Shown: piece after piece, positions 1,234 to 54,080 of the stretch | How positions within the stretch are numbered: the first letter of the stretch is position 1 | How the letters are laid out: each line of letters starts with the position of its first letter | Assembly (NCBI GenBank): GCA_035717985.1 | Contig: DASTHW010000016.1 | Coordinates: 1,859 to 65,858 of the forward strand | Reading direction: 5' to 3' | Source of the DNA: Candidatus Saccharimonadales bacterium | GTDB lineage: Bacteria; Patescibacteriota; Saccharimonadia; Saccharimonadales; UBA10212 | DNA length: 64,000 bases | The notes under the pieces: generated by a model | The model's database searches: none | Seen by the model: only the letters and a program-made list of their open reading frames with translations | Told to the model about the DNA's origin: nothing | Made by a program: the position numbers and the translations under genes

Positions 1234-1520
1234 AATTTGTCGGCCGATTTCTCCCGAGGGAGACCTCGGCCCCGAGTTGGCCATTTCTGGCTTTTCTCGT
1301 CGGCCACCTCACAGTGGCTAACTACCAATATAGGCTACGCTCTGATTTGGGTCAACAATAAAACCGGCTAAGTCGGGACTCAAAAATCCACACATTACCA
1401 AAACCAGATAGCCGCTTGTGGTTAAGCTGTGTAATAAATTGTGGACAGCCCTAAATGGCTAGACAAAGTCGCCTCCGGCTCTTATTGTTATTTACAAGCT
1501 TTACCGGTCGGTGAAGTTAG

Positions 1521-1792
1521 GATTGTAGCTGGACCCACTCGATACTCTTTTGGCTAGCCAAGAGAGGGAAGGAGAAAGAGAATGCCTCACGGAGCCCACG
1601 GCAGTGCCCACAAGGCCCGGGGCCGCTTCAAGTACAAGAAGGCGCCTCACGGCCGTAGCGCCCGCATGGGCGACCAGACCAGACGCGCCGGCAAGAACCA
1701 CAAGTAGGCCGCACGGCCGGGAGGGAACACTGGGGCCGGCTCTTGCGAGCCGGCCCGGCCCCTCCCCGGCACCCCAGCGTCCAGCTACAATC
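1521..1792. repeat. perfect 14-bp inverted repeat pair bracketing a GC-rich insert
   Basis: gattgtagctggac at 1521-1534 and its exact reverse complement gtccagctacaatc at 1779-1792 enclose 244 bp. Confidence 0.7.
1582..1707 (+). CDS. hypothetical 41-aa Lys/Arg/His-rich peptide in GC-rich islet 1
   Basis: My translation: MPHGAHGSAHKARGRFKYKKAPHGRSARMGDQTRRAGKNHK. A strong SD (ggaaggaga) lies just upstream of the ATG. I counted 85 G+C in 126 nt (67%), with codon third positions mostly G/C. A GC hairpin at 1734-1755 lies downstream. Confidence 0.4.
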   Translation: MPHGAHGSAHKARGRFKYKKAPHGRSARMGDQTRRAGKNHK

Positions 1793-1898
1793 TACATTCC
1801 TTGTCATTGCCCATAGTAGCCGCCTTTATAGCTTAAAATCTCACAGAAAAAATGCCGGACCGTATTTAGTATTGCAAGTATAAATAGCAGGAGAGCGG

Positions 1899-2283: not shown

Positions 2284-3981
2284 TTAGAAGCTTTGGCGGA
2301 TGCGGCTCATGGAAAAGTCCCAATCAGCCGTAGCTTTTTTATGTGGATTGAAAATGCCGCTGGGGTCCATGATGTTTTTGGCCTGGCGAAATAGATCAAC
2401 TATTTCTTTGCCGTACATAGCTTCCAGCCAGGGGCCGCGGATAAGCCCGTCATTATGCTCGGCCGTGATTGAACCATGGTAATGCAGTACTAGGTCATTA
2501 ACCTCGCGCATAGCCGGCTCTAGCTTGGCCCGCTCACGCGGGTCTTCTATCTTCATCAGGGGGATAACATGAAAGTTGCCATCGCCCATGTGGCCGGCGA
2601 TAGTGGCAAACAGGCTATATTTTTTGATAATGACTCGGAGTTTAGGCAAAAACTCTGTAAGATATGGCGGATTGACAATAAAATCATCGATAAACGGCGC
2701 CGTATGCTTATCTTTAACCTTGCTCCGCAGAAGCTGGAAGCTATAGCGGCGCATAATCCAAAACTTTTCACTTTTACCTTCGGTGGCGTCTTCTTCAAAG
2801 CCGTTTATCTCATAGCGGGCCCGCAGGTGGCTTAAATCGCCGTGCAGGCTTTTAATTTTGGTTCTGACCTCATCTTCGGTCTGGCCGTCAAACTCAACCA
2901 TCAAAATTAATTTAGGCACGCCGCGAAGTAGCTGGAGCCCGTCCGGTATCAAGCTAAACAGCAGATGAATAAATTTACGAAGTCCCAGCAGTTTAAGGAA
3001 ACTAGGCATAAAACGGATGGATAACCACAGCGTCTGATCGTCAAAACTTTCAAAGGTGGCCGGATGATGCTCTAGGACTTTATTAATTAGCTCACCCAGA
3101 TCGTCAATGTCGCGCAGGAAAAGTACCAGCAGACCGTTATGCGGCTTAGCTGGCACCAATTTGAAGTTAATATCGGTAACAAAGCCTAGCGTACCCTGGG
3201 CACCAGCAATTAATTGGGTCAGGTCAAAAACACCTTTTTCTCTATCCCAAACGTCCCATAGGTAATAGCCGGCCGAATTTTTAGATACATGCGGTTTGGC
3301 GGCCTTAATCTTCTCGTAGTTACCGTCAATCAGCTTAAAAAGCTGGCTATAAACTTGGCCTTCAAAGTCGTCTTGGGCCATTTTGGCATCCAGCTCGGCC
3401 TTTGTTAGGGGTTTGACGGTCCGCTCTATGCCGTCGCTAAAAACAAACTTTAGCTCGTTAATAAAATTCTGAGTTTTGCCGAATTCTAATGATTTTTCGC
3501 CGCCGGAATTGTTATTAACCATACCGCCCACGCTGGCTAAATCGCGGCTAGCCGGGTATGTAGGCATTAGGGCGCCGGCTTTAAGAGTCTCTACCTCAAA
3601 ATCTCTATAAAGCACGCCGGGTTGAACTTGGGCAGACTCAGCCGACACTTGCTCGATAGCCGTAAAATAGCGTCTAAAATCAACAATGACTGACTCATTG
3701 ATGGCGCCGCCGCTCATGTCGGTGCCGGCACTGCGGGCCGTTAGACTAAGGCCTGGGATCTGCGGGCGCGCTTCATTGACGGCAGTCACCAATCTAGAAA
3801 TATCGGCTGAATTTTTAGGAAAAACCACTACCTGGGGCATTAGTTCAAACAGCGAGGCGTCGTGGCTATAAAACTGGCGCGTGGCGTCGGAAGTATCAAT
3901 ATCACCCTCAAAGCCTTTTTGTTTGAGCAGGTTATAGAAGGGTTCCATCCCCGGTAGTGAGCTTTCGAGATTATCCGGCAC
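2284..3981 (-). CDS. FAD-binding oxidoreductase (GlcD / D-lactate dehydrogenase-like, FAD_binding_4 family)
   Basis: 565 aa. The N-terminal FAD-binding region reads PQVVVFPKNSADISRLV ... LTARSAGTDMSGGAI, and the C-terminal FAD-oxidase region contains GDGNFHV and GSITAEHNDG. Confidence 0.8.
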   Translation of the reverse strand: MPDNLESSLPGMEPFYNLLKQKGFEGDIDTSDATRQFYSHDASLFELMPQVVVFPKNSADISRLVTAVNEARPQIPGLSLTARSAGTDMSGGAINESVIVDFRRYFTAIEQVSAESAQVQPGVLYRDFEVETLKAGALMPTYPASRDLASVGGMVNNNSGGEKSLEFGKTQNFINELKFVFSDGIERTVKPLTKAELDAKMAQDDFEGQVYSQLFKLIDGNYEKIKAAKPHVSKNSAGYYLWDVWDREKGVFDLTQLIAGAQGTLGFVTDINFKLVPAKPHNGLLVLFLRDIDDLGELINKVLEHHPATFESFDDQTLWLSIRFMPSFLKLLGLRKFIHLLFSLIPDGLQLLRGVPKLILMVEFDGQTEDEVRTKIKSLHGDLSHLRARYEINGFEEDATEGKSEKFWIMRRYSFQLLRSKVKDKHTAPFIDDFIVNPPYLTEFLPKLRVIIKKYSLFATIAGHMGDGNFHVIPLMKIEDPRERAKLEPAMREVNDLVLHYHGSITAEHNDGLIRGPWLEAMYGKEIVDLFRQAKNIMDPSGIFNPHKKATADWDFSMSRIRQSF

Positions 3982-7197: not shown

Positions 7198-7457
7198 CTA
7201 GTAAGTAGTATATAAAACACCCTTAACCAGCCGGCAATTAAGTTATACTAGCCGGCTATAAATTTGAGTTATTGCATAGCCCCTAAATAGGACTATTATA
7301 AAAATTAATTGTTAATGCTAGTTCTCGCAAAAGCATTGGCTAGTACATCCTGGGAGAAAGGGGGTGATTTCGCTTTAGCCTTTGGGCGCTAAGTAACGTG
7401 CCCAGGGGTAGTTTCAAAAAAACAGCTCGGCAGTACCCGCTTGAAAGGGGGTCTACT

Positions 7458-7649
7458 GTGAACGGCAAAGCGGCCAAGGAGCTCCTCGACATCGAGGAGG
7501 CCGACGCCTGGCACGAATACCTCGAGGCCACCCACGGACAAGGCGAAGCTCGCTACCGCGAGATCGAGCCCTGGGCCTGGGCCCGGCTGAACAATCGCCT
7601 GCGGGCGATCCGTCAGCGCCGCACCAGGCTCAGCCCGGCGGCCGCCTAG
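7458..7649 (+). CDS. hypothetical 63-aa protein in GC-rich islet 2
   Basis: GTG start 6 nt after the SD gaaaggggg, in frame with track ORF 7398..7649. I counted 134 G+C in 192 nt (70%), with strongly G/C third positions. Sequence: VNGKAAKELLDIEEADAWHEYLEATHGQGEARYREIEPWAWARLNNRLRAIRQRRTRLSPAAA. Confidence 0.45.
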   Translation: MNGKAAKELLDIEEADAWHEYLEATHGQGEARYREIEPWAWARLNNRLRAIRQRRTRLSPAAA

Positions 7650-7667
7650 AAGCACCCGTTCCCCCAG

Positions 7668-7740
7668 CCATGCCCGGGCGTGCTGAAACCAGCACGCCCG
7701 GGCATGGCGCCCGCCTCTACTTACATGTAGAGGCGGGCGC
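7668..7740 (+). terminator. two tandem perfect GC-rich hairpins after the islet-2 ORF
   Basis: The first is an 18-bp perfect stem, ccatgcccgggcgtgctg / cagcacgcccgggcatgg, with loop aaac (7668-7707). The second is a 12-13-bp perfect stem, gcgcccgcctcta / tagaggcgggcgc (7707-7740). Neither has a U-tract. Confidence 0.55.
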
Positions 7741-7771
7741 AATCTTACCATTTCTGCGATAATAGCCATTG

Positions 7772-12739: not shown

Positions 12740-13585
12740 ATGGCTAAAGTGCCGGTCATGGCTGTTATCCCAGCCTATAACGCCGCTAAAACATTGCCAA
12801 AGCTGTTAGAGCAAATTTTACTTCAGGGTTATGATGGCATTTTCGTATTAGACGATGCTTCAACCGACAGGACTGTCAAAATTGCTGAAAAGTATTCTCC
12901 CCGAGTCAAAGTTATAAAAGGCAAAACTAATGTTGGCGCCGGCGCCAACCGTAACCGCATAATCGGGCAGGTAGCCCCAGACGTAATCATTCACTTTATC
13001 GACGCCGACGTACGGTTAGTGTCCAAAAATAACCCGGCCATTATCCGAGGTCTTGAGTGGAAAGCGGATACAGCTTACTACGGCGGGCTATTGCGCAACC
13101 CGGCCGGCGAACAAAATCCTTTTAACTTTGGCCCGCGGCCGTGCCTTGCCACCAGCCTGTCTTCCTCAATTCAGTACGGCCTCTGGCAGTTGTCTTATCG
13201 AGCGCCAAAACTGGCTAAAGTTTTAAGAAGCTCCCTTAATTTTTATTTAAAAAGTTGGCCCAATATTTTTAAACAACAAAAATTGCGGCAGGTTTTCTGG
13301 ACGGCCGAGTCAAATCTAATAATTAAAGCCGGCTTATTCCGGGAGCTGGGCGGTTATGATCCGCAGTTTCGCTACGGCGAGATTAATGATCTGGGGCTAC
13401 GGTTAGAGAAAGCCGGCTATAAAAGCTGGTTTTTACCCCAAGTGGATCTCCTACATACCTCGACCGACAACGTATATCTGCACATCAATGATAAAAGGAT
13501 AGCCCGGCGGCAATTAGTTAAAAAATACGGCCATACGATGTCTCTCTGGCCGTGGCTTTATAAAAAGAGATTGAATATTAAATAG
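12740..13585 (+). CDS. family 2 glycosyltransferase
   Basis: N-terminus VIPAYNAAKTL and VLDDASTD (DxD-type), typical of the GT-A fold. Confidence 0.8.
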   Translation: MAKVPVMAVIPAYNAAKTLPKLLEQILLQGYDGIFVLDDASTDRTVKIAEKYSPRVKVIKGKTNVGAGANRNRIIGQVAPDVIIHFIDADVRLVSKNNPAIIRGLEWKADTAYYGGLLRNPAGEQNPFNFGPRPCLATSLSSSIQYGLWQLSYRAPKLAKVLRSSLNFYLKSWPNIFKQQKLRQVFWTAESNLIIKAGLFRELGGYDPQFRYGEINDLGLRLEKAGYKSWFLPQVDLLHTSTDNVYLHINDKRIARRQLVKKYGHTMSLWPWLYKKRLNIK

Positions 13586-13590
13586 ATTTT

Positions 13591-13667
13591 CCGCACGGGG
13601 CGCTCCCGGCTGGGGCGCTAGCCCGTGCGGCGGTGGACGGAAGCCGAAGGTCCCTGCTTCCGTCCAC
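13591..13667. terminator. GC-rich hairpins between the GT2 gene and the islet-3 ORF
   Basis: ccgcacggg at 13591-13599 pairs with cccgtgcgg at 13622-13630. A perfect 11-bp stem, gtggacggaag / cttccgtccac, spans 13633-13667. Confidence 0.5.
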
Positions 13668-13710
13668 GTCTCGCTTTCCAGAGTGATGCCCGCTCGGCAG
13701 GGAGCTAGTG

Positions 13711-14079
13711 CTAGCGGCAATAGCTCTTATCGCGCCGGGCCCAGAGGCTAGCTTCCAGCGCCTGGCCTACCATGTCGGCCAGGTATTGGACCGTCATGGA
13801 GCTGTAGTGCTCGGGCGCTAGCCAGATCTCGAAGGGGTCCGAGTCACTGGCGGCCGGCCGGTGATGCAGTGAGCCCCAGCCGAACTCGGACTTCAGCTCG
13901 TACTCCATCTCCCGCCGTCGAAATTCATCCAACCGGTGGTCACCATTCAGGTGGACCCTCAGGATGATCGACGGCGGATGGAGGAACCGGTCCTTCAGAC
14001 GCTCCCAAGCGCCTACCGGCGGGTCGGGCTTGTCGACTTCGATAGTGAAGCCGCCGAAGTTGTACTCACGAATGACCAC
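13711..14079 (-). CDS. hypothetical 122-aa protein in GC-rich islet 3
   Basis: GTG start preceded by the SD ggaggtg. Codons are strongly G/C-ending. A 100-nt sample (13741-13840) has 63 G+C. No motif recognised. Confidence 0.55.
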   Translation of the reverse strand: MVIREYNFGGFTIEVDKPDPPVGAWERLKDRFLHPPSIILRVHLNGDHRLDEFRRREMEYELKSEFGWGSLHHRPAASDSDPFEIWLAPEHYSSMTVQYLADMVGQALEASLWARRDKSYCR

Positions 14080-34627: not shown

Positions 34628-34765
34628 TTACTCCCTACTATTGCGCCGGCGCCGGCCACCACCACTGGCTTTACCGCCTTCGCGGGCGACCCTCTCTCTG
34701 GTTTCTCTATCTGCGTCTGCTAAACCCCGATTAGAGTTAGAATCTGAATCATCCCTGTTAGCCAT
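34628..34765 (-). CDS. small KGG-repeat stress-induced protein (45 aa)
   Basis: My translation: MANRDDSDSNSNRGLADADRETRERVAREGGKASGGGRRRRNSRE. A strong SD (aaggaggtg) precedes the ATG. Confidence 0.55.
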   Translation of the reverse strand: MANRDDSDSNSNRGLADADRETRERVAREGGKASGGGRRRRNSRE

Positions 34766-34789
34766 GATTCACCTCCTTCTTAATTTACT

Positions 34790-35005
34790 TTACCGATTGT
34801 TGGAACGGCGACCACCGTGACTGTTCTTGCCACCCTCTACCTTGGCTGAACGCGGCTGAGCCTCGGCGCCTTTTTTACCGGCCTCACTCGGGTCGGCGCC
34901 GCCGGGCTTTCCAAACTGGCCTGGGCTGTTTCTGCCGCCCTCGCGGGCCGCTTCTTCGGTGTCGTCCCGGTTACCAAACTGGCCTGGGTTATTGCTGTCT
35001 GCCAT
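34790..35005 (-). CDS. KGG-repeat general stress protein (71 aa)
   Basis: Repeated NPGQFG / SPGQFG and EAGKKG / AREGG motifs, with the SD aaggaggg. Confidence 0.7.
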   Translation of the reverse strand: MADSNNPGQFGNRDDTEEAAREGGRNSPGQFGKPGGADPSEAGKKGAEAQPRSAKVEGGKNSHGGRRSNNR

Positions 35006-50110: not shown

Positions 50111-50890
50111 TCAACTAGCCAGCTTTTTGGCTAAAAATTGGGCATTTTCGACAGCTTTGGCACTTTTATCATTGTTGAAATAGCCGTAGACAGCTTTACA
50201 ATCACCGGTGTTATTTTTAATAAAACTGGCCCATTTAGATAACTCTTTATCAGAATAAGAGTCGGCATATAGACGCTTAGCCCCATGCCAGCGCAGATAT
50301 GCAAAGTCGGCCGTTACTCTGCAATCAGTCGGCCAAATATCCGGCGCACTATTAATGACGAAGGCTATATTTAGAGAACTCAAAAGTGCAAATATTTTAT
50401 CCGTTATCCAGCTAGCATGGCGGCACTCTAGGGCGATAGGGAAAGCTTGGCCGTATCTGTTTTCTGCCTTTTTGAACTGCATGATTAAATTTACAACCTT
50501 CTCTTCACTAGCCGGAAAACTAGCCGGTAATTGTACTAAAACTACCGCAAATTTAGACTCCAAAAATCTAGCTCTTGAACAAAATAAATCAATGCCGTGG
50601 TTAGTTTGATCATCGGTCTTTAACCTTTTAATATGTGTTAAAAACCGGCTGAGTTTAACCGCAAATTTAAAGCCGTCCGGAGTCAACTTACGCCAGTTTT
50701 CAAAAGCTTTTTCGCTGGGCAAGCGGTAAAAACTGTTGTTAATCTCAACGGTCGGAAAATGCTCGGCGTAAAAACTAAGTTTCTCGGTATTTTGCATTTT
50801 TGGCGGATAAAAACGTTTGGCCCAATCTTTATATATCCAGCCGCTGGTACCAATTAAATATTTAGTCGAGGTGAGCGAGGACTTTTTCAA
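50111..50890 (-). CDS. DUF72 (UPF0759, YecE-like) protein
   Basis: GWIYKDWAKRFYPPKM ... LSFYAEHFPTVEINNSFY is characteristic of DUF72. It overlaps the ligD 3' end by 29 nt. Confidence 0.8.
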   Translation of the reverse strand: MKKSSLTSTKYLIGTSGWIYKDWAKRFYPPKMQNTEKLSFYAEHFPTVEINNSFYRLPSEKAFENWRKLTPDGFKFAVKLSRFLTHIKRLKTDDQTNHGIDLFCSRARFLESKFAVVLVQLPASFPASEEKVVNLIMQFKKAENRYGQAFPIALECRHASWITDKIFALLSSLNIAFVINSAPDIWPTDCRVTADFAYLRWHGAKRLYADSYSDKELSKWASFIKNNTGDCKAVYGYFNNDKSAKAVENAQFLAKKLAS

Positions 50891-53300
50891 TATCTATCCC
50901 CTTGCCTATCACCGGCTGCCAAATGTCACCAATATCCTTAAGCCTGCGGCCCATATTTTTAATGTTAAATTCAGCTGGGTTCAGTCGGCTATTAACTTCC
51001 TTCCAGTCGATAGGCGCAGAAACACTAGCAGACGGCGTAGGCCGCACACAGTAAGGTGCCGCCAAAGTCTGGCCTTTTCGATTTTGCAGATAATCTAAAT
51101 AAACCTTGCCCTGGCGCTTTTTAGGGCTCCGCTCTAGACTGGTTGTTTTAGGTAACCTCTGATGGACTAGGTTGGCAAGTAACTGAGCAAATTGTTTAGT
51201 CTGTTCGTAGTTATATTTTGCGGCCAGCGGAATATAAATATGAATACCAGTTTTACCCGAAGTTTTAGCTAAATTTACTATATTTAACTCCTTACATACT
51301 TGATTTACAGCTTTGGCCGCTTGAATAACTTCACTAAATGAAATTCTCTCTGGATCCAGGTCTATGACGCACCAATCCGGATTATCTAAGTGTTCTATCT
51401 TGGAGTTCCACGGATTAATTTCAATACAGCCTAATTGGACCATATATAGCAGGCTGTCCATGGAGTCGGCTACCAGATAATTGATATCTTTTTTATTCGA
51501 TTCAGAGTAAATAGCTTTAGTTTTTACCCAATCCGGCGGCGAATAATTAACATCCTTTTGGAAAAAAGAGTCGCCATCAATACCATTAGGCTGGCGCAGT
51601 AGCGAGTGAGGTCGATCTTTTATATAAGGTAGAATATATTCCCCTACATCTTGGTAATAGTTAACTAGATCGCCCTTTGTAGTACCGGCCGAGGGGAAGA
51701 AAATCTTATCTAAATGGCTAAAATCGACCCGGCTAGCCGGGTTTTTTTTAGCCGGTTTAGATGCTACCGCCTTCGTCTTTAAAGGCATTTCTCTAACAAC
51801 TTGTTTGGGCTTTTTATCGTCGCGCAGACCTTTAAAAATTGGCTGGCGCATATGACCGGTTGAAGTCCATTCGCTAAAAGAAACCTCACAGACCATAGAC
51901 GGCTTTAGCCAGTGGGCTGGTGCATTGGGTTTAAAACTTTCACTAAAAGGTGATTTAGAAACTTCCAGTTTTTCTAAGGACTGCCTTAGAAGTCTCAACT
52001 GCGACGAGGGGATACCGCCACCGGTGTGGCCAATGTAATGAAGGCGCCCGTCAGAGCCGTAAACACCCAAAATTAAAGCGCCAATATGTTTTCTCGAACC
52101 GCTGGGCTCGGTAAAGCCGCCAATTACCGCCTCTTGGCGTAGCTCCGTCTTAATCTTCAGCCACTGTTTACTGCGCCTCCCACAGTGATATTTGCTGTCA
52201 GCTTTTTTAGCGATAATACCTTCTAGATTTTGGCTTTTAGCCAGACTATAAAAATCATTGCCAGCACCATCTATATGGTCGCTATAGTGAATCAACCCGA
52301 CATTGCCAAGTTGAGCCAAAATTTCCTTTCGGCGGCTAAGCGGCAGGCCGGTTAAATCATGGCCATCACACCAAAGAATATCGAAGACGTAGTAAACTAG
52401 CTGGCCCTTTGGCGCCCTGCCGTAATCTTGTAGCCAGCCAAAGTTAGCCTTACCTTGAGCGTCTACGGCTACTACCTCACCGTCAAGCACTACTTTATGC
52501 TCAAGACGACGCAGTGACTCTAAAATTGGCTTATAGTGGCTAAAGCCATTACCCTGGCGTGAATAGAGGCGGGCCGAGCGGCCATCCCACTGACCCAGTG
52601 CCCGGTAGCCATCCCATTTAATCTCAAACAGCCACCCAACATCGTCAAATGGCTCATCAGTCAGCGTGGCTAACTGAGGCCTGACGTTTTTGGGCATACC
52701 TGCTTTGGGCGCAGACGATAAATCAATCTTATCCTGAGACAGCTCCTCTACCCTTCGGCCGCTAACAACAGATTGATCCTGGCCGGTTACATCGATATCA
52801 CCGGCATAGCGGTCCTTCTTTTTGACTAACAGCCAGGCATTATCCCCCATCGACGGACTTTTGATTAGACCAAATTCACCGTTTAATTTTTGACCTCTCA
52901 ACACAATGGTCAGTCGGCCGCGCTTTAACTGTTTTAAAAGGTATTCCTCCTTACTATCAGTTTTCTGCCGAGGCTCGTACGTGCCGCGGTCCCAAATAAT
53001 TACATTACCGGCACCGTAGCTTTTTTTAGGGATAACCCCTTCAAATTTTCGATAATCATAAGGGTGATCTTCAACCATCATAGCTAGCCTTTTATCGCTA
53101 GGATTTAGCGATGGGCCCTTGGGCACAGCCCAGCTTTTTAGCACGCCGCCCATCTCTAGGCGAAAATCATAATGCAGGTGGCTGGCGTGGTGCTTGTGAA
53201 CTACAAATTCTAGGCTAGCTGATTTTTCTTTACCCTTGGCCGGCGTGGGCTCTGGTGTTTTAGTAAAGTCGCGCAGGCTTTTATATCTAGTGAGGCTCAT
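50862..53300 (-). CDS. ligD: multidomain ATP-dependent DNA ligase LigD (phosphoesterase-ligase-polymerase order)
   Basis: N-terminal PE domain FVVHKHHASHLHYDFRLE. Adenylation motif EIKWDGYR (KxDG). C-terminal primase-polymerase domain (FPSAGTTKGDLVNYYQDV, LLRQPNGIDGDSFFQKD, IDLDP). Confidence 0.9.
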   Translation of the reverse strand: MSLTRYKSLRDFTKTPEPTPAKGKEKSASLEFVVHKHHASHLHYDFRLEMGGVLKSWAVPKGPSLNPSDKRLAMMVEDHPYDYRKFEGVIPKKSYGAGNVIIWDRGTYEPRQKTDSKEEYLLKQLKRGRLTIVLRGQKLNGEFGLIKSPSMGDNAWLLVKKKDRYAGDIDVTGQDQSVVSGRRVEELSQDKIDLSSAPKAGMPKNVRPQLATLTDEPFDDVGWLFEIKWDGYRALGQWDGRSARLYSRQGNGFSHYKPILESLRRLEHKVVLDGEVVAVDAQGKANFGWLQDYGRAPKGQLVYYVFDILWCDGHDLTGLPLSRRKEILAQLGNVGLIHYSDHIDGAGNDFYSLAKSQNLEGIIAKKADSKYHCGRRSKQWLKIKTELRQEAVIGGFTEPSGSRKHIGALILGVYGSDGRLHYIGHTGGGIPSSQLRLLRQSLEKLEVSKSPFSESFKPNAPAHWLKPSMVCEVSFSEWTSTGHMRQPIFKGLRDDKKPKQVVREMPLKTKAVASKPAKKNPASRVDFSHLDKIFFPSAGTTKGDLVNYYQDVGEYILPYIKDRPHSLLRQPNGIDGDSFFQKDVNYSPPDWVKTKAIYSESNKKDINYLVADSMDSLLYMVQLGCIEINPWNSKIEHLDNPDWCVIDLDPERISFSEVIQAAKAVNQVCKELNIVNLAKTSGKTGIHIYIPLAAKYNYEQTKQFAQLLANLVHQRLPKTTSLERSPKKRQGKVYLDYLQNRKGQTLAAPYCVRPTPSASVSAPIDWKEVNSRLNPAEFNIKNMGRRLKDIGDIWQPVIGKGIDIEKVLAHLD

Positions 53301-53309
53301 AAAAGACCC

Positions 53310-54080
53310 TTAAGCTTTTTGGGATTCAAGGCTAGCTTTGAGGGTGCTCATCAGGTCTTTAACCTTGGTCGGCCGAGGTTCAGAGCCATGAGTTTTGGGT
53401 TCATGGCCTTTGGCTTTTTGCTCAATAATTTCTTCTAGCTCTTCGGTATAAGTGTCATGCCAGTCTTCGGCTATAAACGGTTTGGTAAGCTGATCAATTA
53501 AAGCTAGGGCCATCTTTAGCTCCGCCTCACCTACTTCGCTGTCCGGTAAATTTAAATCAGTTGGCCGCCTGACATCAGCCGGAAAACGCATTTGATTTAG
53601 CACCAGCGCATGGCCGATTGGCTTAACAGCCCCCATATTATCCCGCGCCCGCATAGCGTACTTTACTAGGGCCACTTTGCCCGATTTTTTTAAAGCCTCA
53701 TGTAGGAGCCGGTAGGCTTGCTCTGCTCCCCTGCCCGGCTCTAAATAGTACGGCTTGTCATAATAGCGGCTGTCAATTTCTGACTCATCAGCAAATTGCC
53801 TAATTTCTAGGGTTTTCGTCTTCCGGGCGTCGGCTTTTTTAAAATCTTCACTACTAAGAGTTATGTAGTCGCCGTCTTGATATTCATATCCCTTAACAAT
53901 CTCGTCATAGGGGATTTCTTTGCCGTCACGGCGGCATATCCGGGCGTATCTTATGGGCGAAGAATCAGCTTTATGAAGCATGTGAAGATCCAGCCCGGCC
54001 CGGCTCTCACTGCCGCTATACATTTTGACCGGTATGTTAACTAAGCCAAAACCTATGGAACCTGTCCAAATTGCCCGCAA
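53310..54080 (-). CDS. ku: Ku DNA end-binding protein
   Basis: N-terminus RAIWTGSIGFGLVNIPVKMY. 256 aa with a TTG start about 10 nt after the SD aaggag. Confidence 0.9.
   Translation of the reverse strand: MRAIWTGSIGFGLVNIPVKMYSGSESRAGLDLHMLHKADSSPIRYARICRRDGKEIPYDEIVKGYEYQDGDYITLSSEDFKKADARKTKTLEIRQFADESEIDSRYYDKPYYLEPGRGAEQAYRLLHEALKKSGKVALVKYAMRARDNMGAVKPIGHALVLNQMRFPADVRRPTDLNLPDSEVGEAELKMALALIDQLTKPFIAEDWHDTYTEELEEIIEQKAKGHEPKTHGSEPRPTKVKDLMSTLKASLESQKA

Follow-up and report, generated by a model that had tools for sequence, protein, structure and literature searches.

A compositionally foreign ORFan islet with predicted long-range RNA pairing in a Candidatus Saccharimonadales genome

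The 5′- and 3′-untranslated regions (UTRs) of the Bacillus subtilis hbs mRNA interact through 14 nucleotides (nt) of full complementarity, as validated by compensatory mutation (Braun, Durand & Condon 2017, PMC5737220). By this pairing, RNase Y cuts the leader less, and degradation that starts at the 3′ end is slowed down (PMC5737220). Here, we describe a locus of similar layout in a 64,000-nt stretch of DNA from a Candidatus Saccharimonadales bacterium (GenBank assembly GCA_035717985.1, contig DASTHW010000016.1)—hereafter the window. Close to its left end, the window carries a compact GC-rich segment, termed islet 1, in which a 41-codon open reading frame (ORF), named pep41, lies between the arms of a perfect 14-nt inverted repeat. 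Judged from its sequence, islet 1 is a compositionally foreign ORFan islet with a predicted long-range RNA pairing; it is a singleton, and the sequence does not settle the function of its peptide. Our favored and still tentative reading is that of a horizontally acquired, lineage-specific orphan mini-gene, whose transcript might be closed by an hbs-like 5′/3′ clamp.

The likeness to hbs covers several levels. In both cases, by prediction for islet 1, 14 fully complementary nt connect the leader, directly behind its 5′ hairpin, with the 3′-UTR, the mRNA is short, the encoded protein is small and basic, and the Shine–Dalgarno (SD) sequence is strong. The two duplexes are similar in the magnitude of their energies, with −19 kcal/mol for hbs and −25 kcal/mol for islet 1. 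However, the 3′ arm of hbs is located upstream of its terminator, whereas the right arm of islet 1 is located 8 nt downstream of a strong hairpin. Also, hbs is a conserved housekeeping gene and islet 1 an orphan of foreign composition, and the pairing is proven by compensatory mutation for the former and predicted for the latter. For the icaR mRNA of Staphylococcus aureus, a 3′-UTR sequence is reported to pair with the 5′-UTR of its own mRNA, which affects RNase III cleavage and translation (PMC3868564). Pairing of the two UTRs within one mRNA is likewise what is predicted for islet 1. In icaR, the 3′-UTR motif masks the SD sequence, whereas the arms of islet 1 sit 35 nt upstream of an SD sequence that is predicted to be ~50% accessible.

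Compositionally atypical islets of ORFans that originate from horizontal transfer are a general concept. Islet 1 resembles such islets in that it deviates strongly from the host genome in GC content and codon usage, it is positioned at a synteny break, it has no homologues, and it is one of several in this genome. It differs from them in that it is unusually small and consists of a single 41-codon gene with its own hairpin and a perfect bracketing repeat.

Composition, codon usage, and orphan status

The compositionally foreign core of islet 1 is the maximal-scoring GC-rich segment at 1584–1785, which has 73% GC vs 49.7% for the window and is the second-strongest GC islet of the window. On the forward strand, pep41 (MPHGAHGSAHKARGRFKYKKAPHGRSARMGDQTRRAGKNHK; MPHGAHG...NHK) spans 1582–1707 and encodes a 41-aa basic peptide with 6 Lys, 7 Arg, and 6 His. 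Its SD sequence AAGGAG is located at 1569–1574 (+), 7 nt before the ATG—an ideal spacing. An earlier note on this DNA had placed the peptide below normal gene-calling cutoffs. This is wrong: GenBank contains it as hypothetical protein VFP35_03905 (HET9850734.1) from the Prokaryotic Genome Annotation Pipeline (PGAP), assigned to a Candidatus Saccharimonadales metagenome-assembled genome and located on a 132,681-bp contig.

The GC content of pep41 by codon position is 26/41, 23/41, and 35/41 (.63/.56/.85), with a significant difference between the third and the first two positions (Fisher p = 0.004). This codon-phase asymmetry is seen within the ORF and is gone after the stop codon. Furthermore, all 16 two-fold degenerate codons end in G or C (6 AAG, 5 CAC, and one each of AAC, CAG, GAC, TTC, and TAC). 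In the native genes, the share of such codons averages 0.44 with a maximum of 0.57, and the 16 of 16 found in pep41 have P = 1e-6 under native usage. The evidence for pep41 as a gene is moderately good. As composition and codon usage fit a high-GC genome and not this one, horizontal acquisition from an unsampled high-GC source is the simplest reading.

At the same time, pep41 is an orphan. Only the peptide itself was recovered among 5.8 billion clustered proteins and, with full HMMER scoring, among 1.84 billion representatives; the protein search suggested earlier for this 41-mer thus returned HET9850734.1 and no small basic relatives. There was no match in viral or metagenome contigs by back-translated scans, none in phage or plasmid records by tblastn, none at E ≤ 1 among the curated profiles of Pfam, NCBIfam, PHROGs, and PADLOC, and none at E ≤ 10 in the PDB. 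An assignment to a known class of small basic proteins—such as ribosome-associated peptides or KGG stress proteins—found no support, as no curated profile matched. The peptide is strongly cationic and probably disordered, and it is our guess that it could act as a nucleic-acid- or ribosome-binding polycation that is co-expressed with a stress chaperone.

The inverted repeat and its predicted RNA stem

On the forward strand, the arms of the inverted repeat are located at 1521–1534 (GATTGTAGCTGGAC) and 1779–1792 (GTCCAGCTACAATC), are complementary in 14 of 14 positions, and enclose 244 nt. The right arm marks the 3′ edge of the GC-rich segment. The left arm sits 50 nt outside the GC-rich boundary, and the 60 nt inside it show a native-like GC content. 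The earlier note had pointed to these arms, their 244-bp spacing, the SD sequence, the 41-aa ORF, and a hairpin, and all of them are present in the window. That observation is confirmed, and its interpretation is partly supported.

Taken by itself, such a repeat does not exceed chance expectation, but its placement around the islet is improbable by chance. The statement that such a repeat is expected well under once per window turned out to be too strong: second-order Markov simulations of the window yield a mean of 0.37 perfect 14-nt inverted repeats with loops of up to 400 nt and at least one of them in 18% of the simulated windows. In ~1.05 Mb of real Saccharimonadales DNA, there are five long-range inverted repeats of at least 14 nt, which corresponds to roughly 0.3 per 64 kb. 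On the other side, random placement of a 180- to 400-nt segment gives a bracketing inverted repeat of at least 14 nt in 1 of 4000 cases, and extrapolation of the frequencies seen for 10–13 nt gives ~1e-4 per islet for at least 14 nt and <1e-3 over all islets. The repeat of islet 1 is the only long-range inverted repeat in the ~1.05 Mb that encloses a GC-enriched segment (+0.18), and the bracketing inverted repeats of the other GC islets of the window reach just 5–6 nt. Since the arms are not GC-rich, the composition of the islet does not inflate the chance of a bracketing repeat. Hence, the repeat is probably a genuine property of islet 1, though no general property of GC islets.

Two further repeats were seen in this survey. 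The first has perfect 13-nt arms that are 380 nt apart (2131–2143/2524–2536) and extends across the coding regions of the neighboring hsp20 and FAD oxidase genes; it is almost certainly due to chance and illustrates the background rate of long-range inverted repeats. The second, in a related genome (L076, 2163–2300), has perfect 23-nt arms around a 92-nt loop; its length is far above this background, and it might represent a true structured or mobile element.

At the level of RNA, the stem formed by the two arms dominates thermodynamically. For all six transcript contexts folded, from 1495–1800 through 1460–2290, the predicted pairing probability of the arms is 0.99 or higher, and their duplex comprises 15 bp including a terminal G–U pair with a ΔG of −25.1 kcal/mol. 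Shuffling of the right arm costs ~12 kcal/mol, and the left arm is unpaired in folds that lack the right arm. The fold of the whole element has a z-score of −4.85. The data are compatible with a putative long-range RNA stem of high thermodynamic stability. Of the earlier proposal—a long-range stem that sequesters the whole mini-gene—the predicted pairing stands, whereas the sequestration does not: the SD sequence of pep41 is ~50% unpaired in the fold ensemble.

A transcript with both arms might begin at a promoter-like site on the forward strand at 1460–1488 (TAGACA-17-TATTGT), which matches the consensus in 9 of 12 positions and predicts a start near 1495. It is the only plus-strand sigma-70-like match between the upstream methyltransferase gene and hsp20; such sites were called by consensus matches only, with 3 in the region vs 1.1 expected. 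The predicted start is followed by a small 5′ hairpin with a 9-bp stem at 1497–1518 (+; fold of 1495–1600), directly 5′ of the left arm, and by a near-perfect palindrome at 1545–1566 (+; CTCTTTTGGCTAG/CTAGCCAAGAGAG, 92%), which forms a 9-bp hairpin in RNA folds just 5′ of the SD sequence. After the stop codon, a compound GC hairpin spans 1716–1770 (+) and ends 8 nt before the right arm. It consists of an outer stem (1716–1725/1760–1770) and an inner perfect stem, whose 10-nt arms (1733–1742/1747–1756) extend slightly beyond the 9-bp hairpin at 1734–1755 that had been noticed before. For the fold of 1700–1795, the minimum free energy (MFE) is −51 kcal/mol with z = −3.5.

The compound hairpin does not form a canonical intrinsic terminator: the stem is present, but it is followed by GCACCCCAGCGUCC without a U tract, and the terminator scan did not call it. 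Native terminators seen in the window, e.g., at 1216–1233 (−) and ~39.50–39.53 kb, do have a U tract. Also, no promoter-like site is found in 1793–1898, between the islet and hsp20. The hairpin without a U tract and the missing promoter before hsp20 make it plausible that transcription reads through into hsp20 and thereby includes the right arm. The 5′-UTR of hsp20 is unstructured (z = 0.26). An RNA thermometer or SD masking for hsp20 was hence discarded; the accessibility of its SD sequence is 0.36 with or without the cassette. Rfam contains no match to the element at the gathering threshold, and at E ≤ 10 only noise appears (miRNA models with 15–17 bits).

Taken together, the following course of events would account for the locus. 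About 200 bp of high-GC DNA might have brought the SD sequence, the 41-codon ORF, and the very stable GC hairpin without a U tract into a spacer without synteny, most likely within the present-day leader of the orphan hsp20. Transcription would start from the promoter-like site at 1460–1488 and read through the U-less hairpin. The 14-nt arms would then pair—as 15 bp with the terminal G–U—and close the mini-cistron as a panhandle. By analogy with hbs, we infer that such a clamp could protect both the leader and the 3′ end against ribonucleases; alternatively, it might be a processing site that parts the pep41 RNA from the hsp20 message.

Several points weigh against this reading. The right arm lies downstream of a very strong hairpin, and termination there would leave the right arm untranscribed and abolish the clamp. 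Hairpins without a U tract are reported to terminate transcription in some high-GC bacteria. For the promoter, 9 of 12 consensus positions match, and little is known about promoters in this phylum. Across the islet, there are four open frames, and a 41-codon ORF is expected by chance in DNA of 73% GC. No collection searched contains a homologous locus, and consequently neither conservation nor covariation supports translation or the stem. No homologue of an islet ORF was found either, so that no donor can be named, which is awkward for a recent horizontal transfer. Finally, other GC-rich orphan mini-genes of this genome occur without a bracketing repeat, and the clamp is therefore no general requirement of such genes.

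Genomic setting and alternative explanations

Islet 1 is located between a class I methyltransferase gene (259–1170) and an Hsp20/alpha-crystallin gene (hsp20; 1899–2282, +), which is followed by a gene for an FAD-linked oxidase (2284–3981, −). The composition of hsp20 is native, and the promoter upstream of the islet is probably shared with it. For comparison, 80 Saccharimonadales loci were fetched via the neighboring FAD oxidase. Across these loci, synteny is kept on the UvrD side only, and the methyltransferase, pep41, and hsp20 are found in 0 of the 80. In the closest relative, whose oxidase is 81% identical, a cyo operon takes the place of methyltransferase, pep41, and hsp20. For hsp20 and the methyltransferase, no close relative was found in the protein database or in metagenomes of the Joint Genome Institute (JGI). 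As the region has no counterpart in the 80 loci, the islet resides in a strain- or species-specific segment.

In an independent k-mer assembly (Logan, run SRR25158356), the right junction and its flanks recur at 100% identity, which counts against an assembly chimera and adds no variation. The Logan contigs, which are 100% identical to the window, end at 1332 and 1754, and these ends match neither the arms nor any simple deletion. A reading of the two breaks as polymorphism was set aside, as low coverage at the GC hairpin explains them equally well.

Between the methyltransferase gene and islet 1, the reverse strand carries a candidate small RNA (sRNA) of ~100 nt (1205–1355, −) with a promoter-like TTGACC-17-TATATT (10/12), after which come four hairpins and a terminator (stem 1233–1216 and a T run) that is the single canonical one in this region. 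Its predicted fold has −59.4 kcal/mol, z = −5.4, and an MFE frequency of 0.33. In Rfam, only a sub-threshold match to Atu_C8 (19 bits) was obtained for it, and nothing similar is present in the 80 related loci.

Miniature inverted-repeat transposable elements (MITEs)—e.g., the Correia, RUP, and ERIC elements—are small and intergenic, have terminal inverted repeats, and lack a transposase. Islet 1, with 272 bp, terminal inverted repeats, an intergenic position, and no transposase, looks alike. It might hence be a non-autonomous mobile cassette—MITE-like or a mini insertion sequence—with the arms as terminal inverted repeats for a transposase encoded elsewhere, which landed between the hsp20 promoter and hsp20 and carries the mini-gene as a passenger. 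We regard such an origin as unlikely. It would suit such an origin that perfect, terminal-looking repeats bound a foreign unit of 272 bp and that this unit is located in a variable spacer without synteny, and excision of 1521–1792 would leave the promoter-like site at 1460–1488 with a 132-nt hsp20 leader. However, the MITE-like insertion that the earlier note had offered as one option is not supported, as a target-site duplication is missing and a second copy was not found in any sequence examined. At the junctions, there is no direct repeat of 2–10 nt, and none of 3–9 nt within a 3-nt offset. The search for further copies of the 14-mer pair gave one chance-level match with 2 mismatches in the window, none in the 80 related loci (0.95 Mb), and none as an inverted-repeat pair in viral contigs. 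These copy-number statements hold for the ~66 kb over which this genome was read—~6% of roughly 1 Mb—and more copies are possible outside of it. Furthermore, blastn against phages and plasmids gave no meaningful matches for islet 1, there is no transposase within −2 kb/+10 kb, and the left "terminus" and the compositional boundary are at different places, as the 60 nt inside the left arm have a native-like GC content. Also, the other islets have no sequence or termini in common with islet 1, and the complete, translated-looking gene and the foreign interior set it apart from MITEs.

Unlikely, too, is a merely coincidental repeat, with just the GC-rich orphan mini-gene and its hairpin being biologically meaningful. 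The background rate of 0.3–0.4 per 64 kb for 14-nt inverted repeats with loops of up to 400 nt—both in simulation and in related DNA—speaks for it, as do the 13-nt repeat at 2131/2524 in adjacent coding DNA and the absence of a bracketing inverted repeat at the other islets. In addition, the feature was picked after the fact by a pattern-seeking reader. Against coincidence stands the estimate that, given the islet, a bracketing repeat of this length arises at ~1e-4 per islet and <1e-3 for all of them, together with arms that are not GC-rich.

A further possibility, which we consider rather improbable, is that islet 1 is a non-coding element—a structured RNA or inert captured DNA—and that the ORF is a by-product of high GC. 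The four open frames fit to this, and an antisense ORF at 1647–1772 reaches the same GC content at third codon positions (GC3) of 0.85 as pep41. The strong predicted structure of the element (z = −4.85) and the lack of a homologue, and thus of any sign of selection on the peptide, point in this direction as well. In contrast, the codon-phase GC asymmetry that is lost past the stop codon, the ideal distance between AAGGAG and ATG, and the G/C-ending two-fold codons (16/16) are features of a translated gene, and a search of Rfam up to E ≤ 10 yielded no family for the element.

In invertons, or invertible promoters, inverted repeats enclose a short regulatory segment (<~300–750 bp); of the 10,983 catalogued cases, >75% have fewer than 300 bases (PMC11602134). 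Islet 1 has inverted repeats around an intergenic segment of this size, upstream of a stress-related gene. A site-specific recombinase might therefore flip the 244-bp segment and uncouple pep41 from the upstream promoter as an on/off switch. This is very improbable: no recombinase is encoded within −2 kb/+10 kb, neither strand of 1535–1778 contains a promoter-like site, the right junction is oriented identically in both assemblies, the Logan ends at 1332 and 1754 are not at the arms—contrary to an orientation polymorphism—and the segment is foreign coding DNA and not a promoter. An integron cassette and a retron are dismissed, the former as 1400–1950 contains no RYYYAAC/GTTRRRY core-site pair on either strand and no cassette array or integrase is nearby, the latter as there is no reverse-transcriptase domain among the precomputed Pfam matches of the neighbors and no Rfam match.

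Further GC-rich islets and their possible meaning

Islet 1 is not the only compact GC islet of this genome. With 66–73% GC, four of them are found in ~66 kb here vs five in 950 kb of relatives, where they are ~ten times rarer. The style of islet 1—an SD sequence, an intergenic ORF with GC3 of 0.78–0.85, and perfect GC hairpins—recurs at 7458–7743, at 13591–14079 (−), and ~2 kb left of the window. These islets share no sequence or termini with islet 1, as just chance words of 9–13 nt are in common, and no tandem repeat was found. Our literature search returned nothing on point for GC-rich islets in Saccharibacteria.

Islet 2 (7398–7760) has 72% GC and lies in the intergenic region between QueA and a UvrD-like helicase. 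Its ORF encodes 63 aa from a GTG at 7458, and the reading frame (ORF 7398–7649) has a GC3 of 0.78. The ORF is followed by two strong hairpins, with 19-nt arms at 7667–7708 (100%) and 17-nt arms at 7704–7743 (94%), and there is no bracketing repeat. For the 63-aa ORF, no homologue was found in viral contigs, by tblastn against phages and plasmids, or in PHROGs, a search that did not extend to the large protein databases or to Pfam. Islet 3 (13580–14079, −) contains a 122-aa ORF (HET9850747.1) with a GC3 of 0.80 and thereafter a 12-bp perfect hairpin (13633–13667). Among 5.8 billion proteins, the 122-aa ORF retrieved only itself. Six viral matches were rejected as spurious, as they rest on one WERLKDRF(L) motif in otherwise dissimilar phage proteins, on which no family search was made. 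The fourth islet is located ~2 kb left of window position 1 (L082, 1–400) and carries two minus-strand ORFs of ~39 aa and ~76 aa, with hydrophobic stretches and strong SD sequences upstream; the Logan contig starts inside this islet.

GC-richness of another kind is seen at 34628–35005 (−), where two small hydrophilic Gly/Arg/Asp-rich proteins similar to KGG-type stress proteins (45 aa and 71 aa) are encoded in tandem, each with a separate SD sequence. With a GC3 of just 0.57, the GC-richness of this region is due to the amino acid composition. In another Saccharimonadales genome with 49% GC (L063, 8435–8660), a GC-rich gene adjoins rplK and encodes a 54-aa basic Gly/Gln-rich peptide, whose Lys codons are all AAG. 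A perfect hairpin of 17 bp comes after the gene, which is pep41-like in style; the 54-aa peptide has no sequence similarity to pep41.

At 50862–54080 (−), a LigD-like ORF of 812 aa adjoins a Ku-like ORF of 256 aa. Labeled by eye from the translations, the two would be a non-homologous end-joining pair in a small genome of the Candidate Phyla Radiation, and their GC3 of 0.45–0.47 is below that of the rest of the window. Their presence is compatible with a capture of DNA fragments that lack target duplications. One could speculate that islet 1, islet 2 (7458–7743), islet 3 (13591–14079), and the left islet are footprints of a repeated capture of short DNA, which an epibiotic Saccharimonadales cell would have obtained from a high-GC partner—an actinobacterial host or its phages—via uptake and Ku/LigD, with each piece being kept as a minimal expressed gene that comprises an SD sequence, an ORF with a high GC3, and a U-less hairpin. 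Hereby, the repeat of islet 1 would be a joining scar from snap-back or templated fill-in that later became an RNA clamp. End-joining capture would explain the absence of target-site duplications and shared termini. As a whole, we hold this scenario to be improbable.

For islet 1 as an acquired mini-gene with a clamped transcript, the consequences would be twofold. If pep41 is made, it would be a new, extremely cationic micro-protein in a phylum with an essentially unexplored small proteome, and its gene would lie close to that of a stress chaperone. Should the stem function in the proposed way, it would be a second natural 14-nt 5′/3′ clamp of the hbs type, in a very distant lineage. The multi-islet pattern may be a more promising lead than the islet 1 singleton. 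Four compact orphan mini-genes with 66–73% GC within 66 kb of a 50%-GC genome could mark gene flow from high-GC hosts into epibiotic bacteria of the Candidate Phyla Radiation (CPR), and such a marker could hint at the identity of the host.

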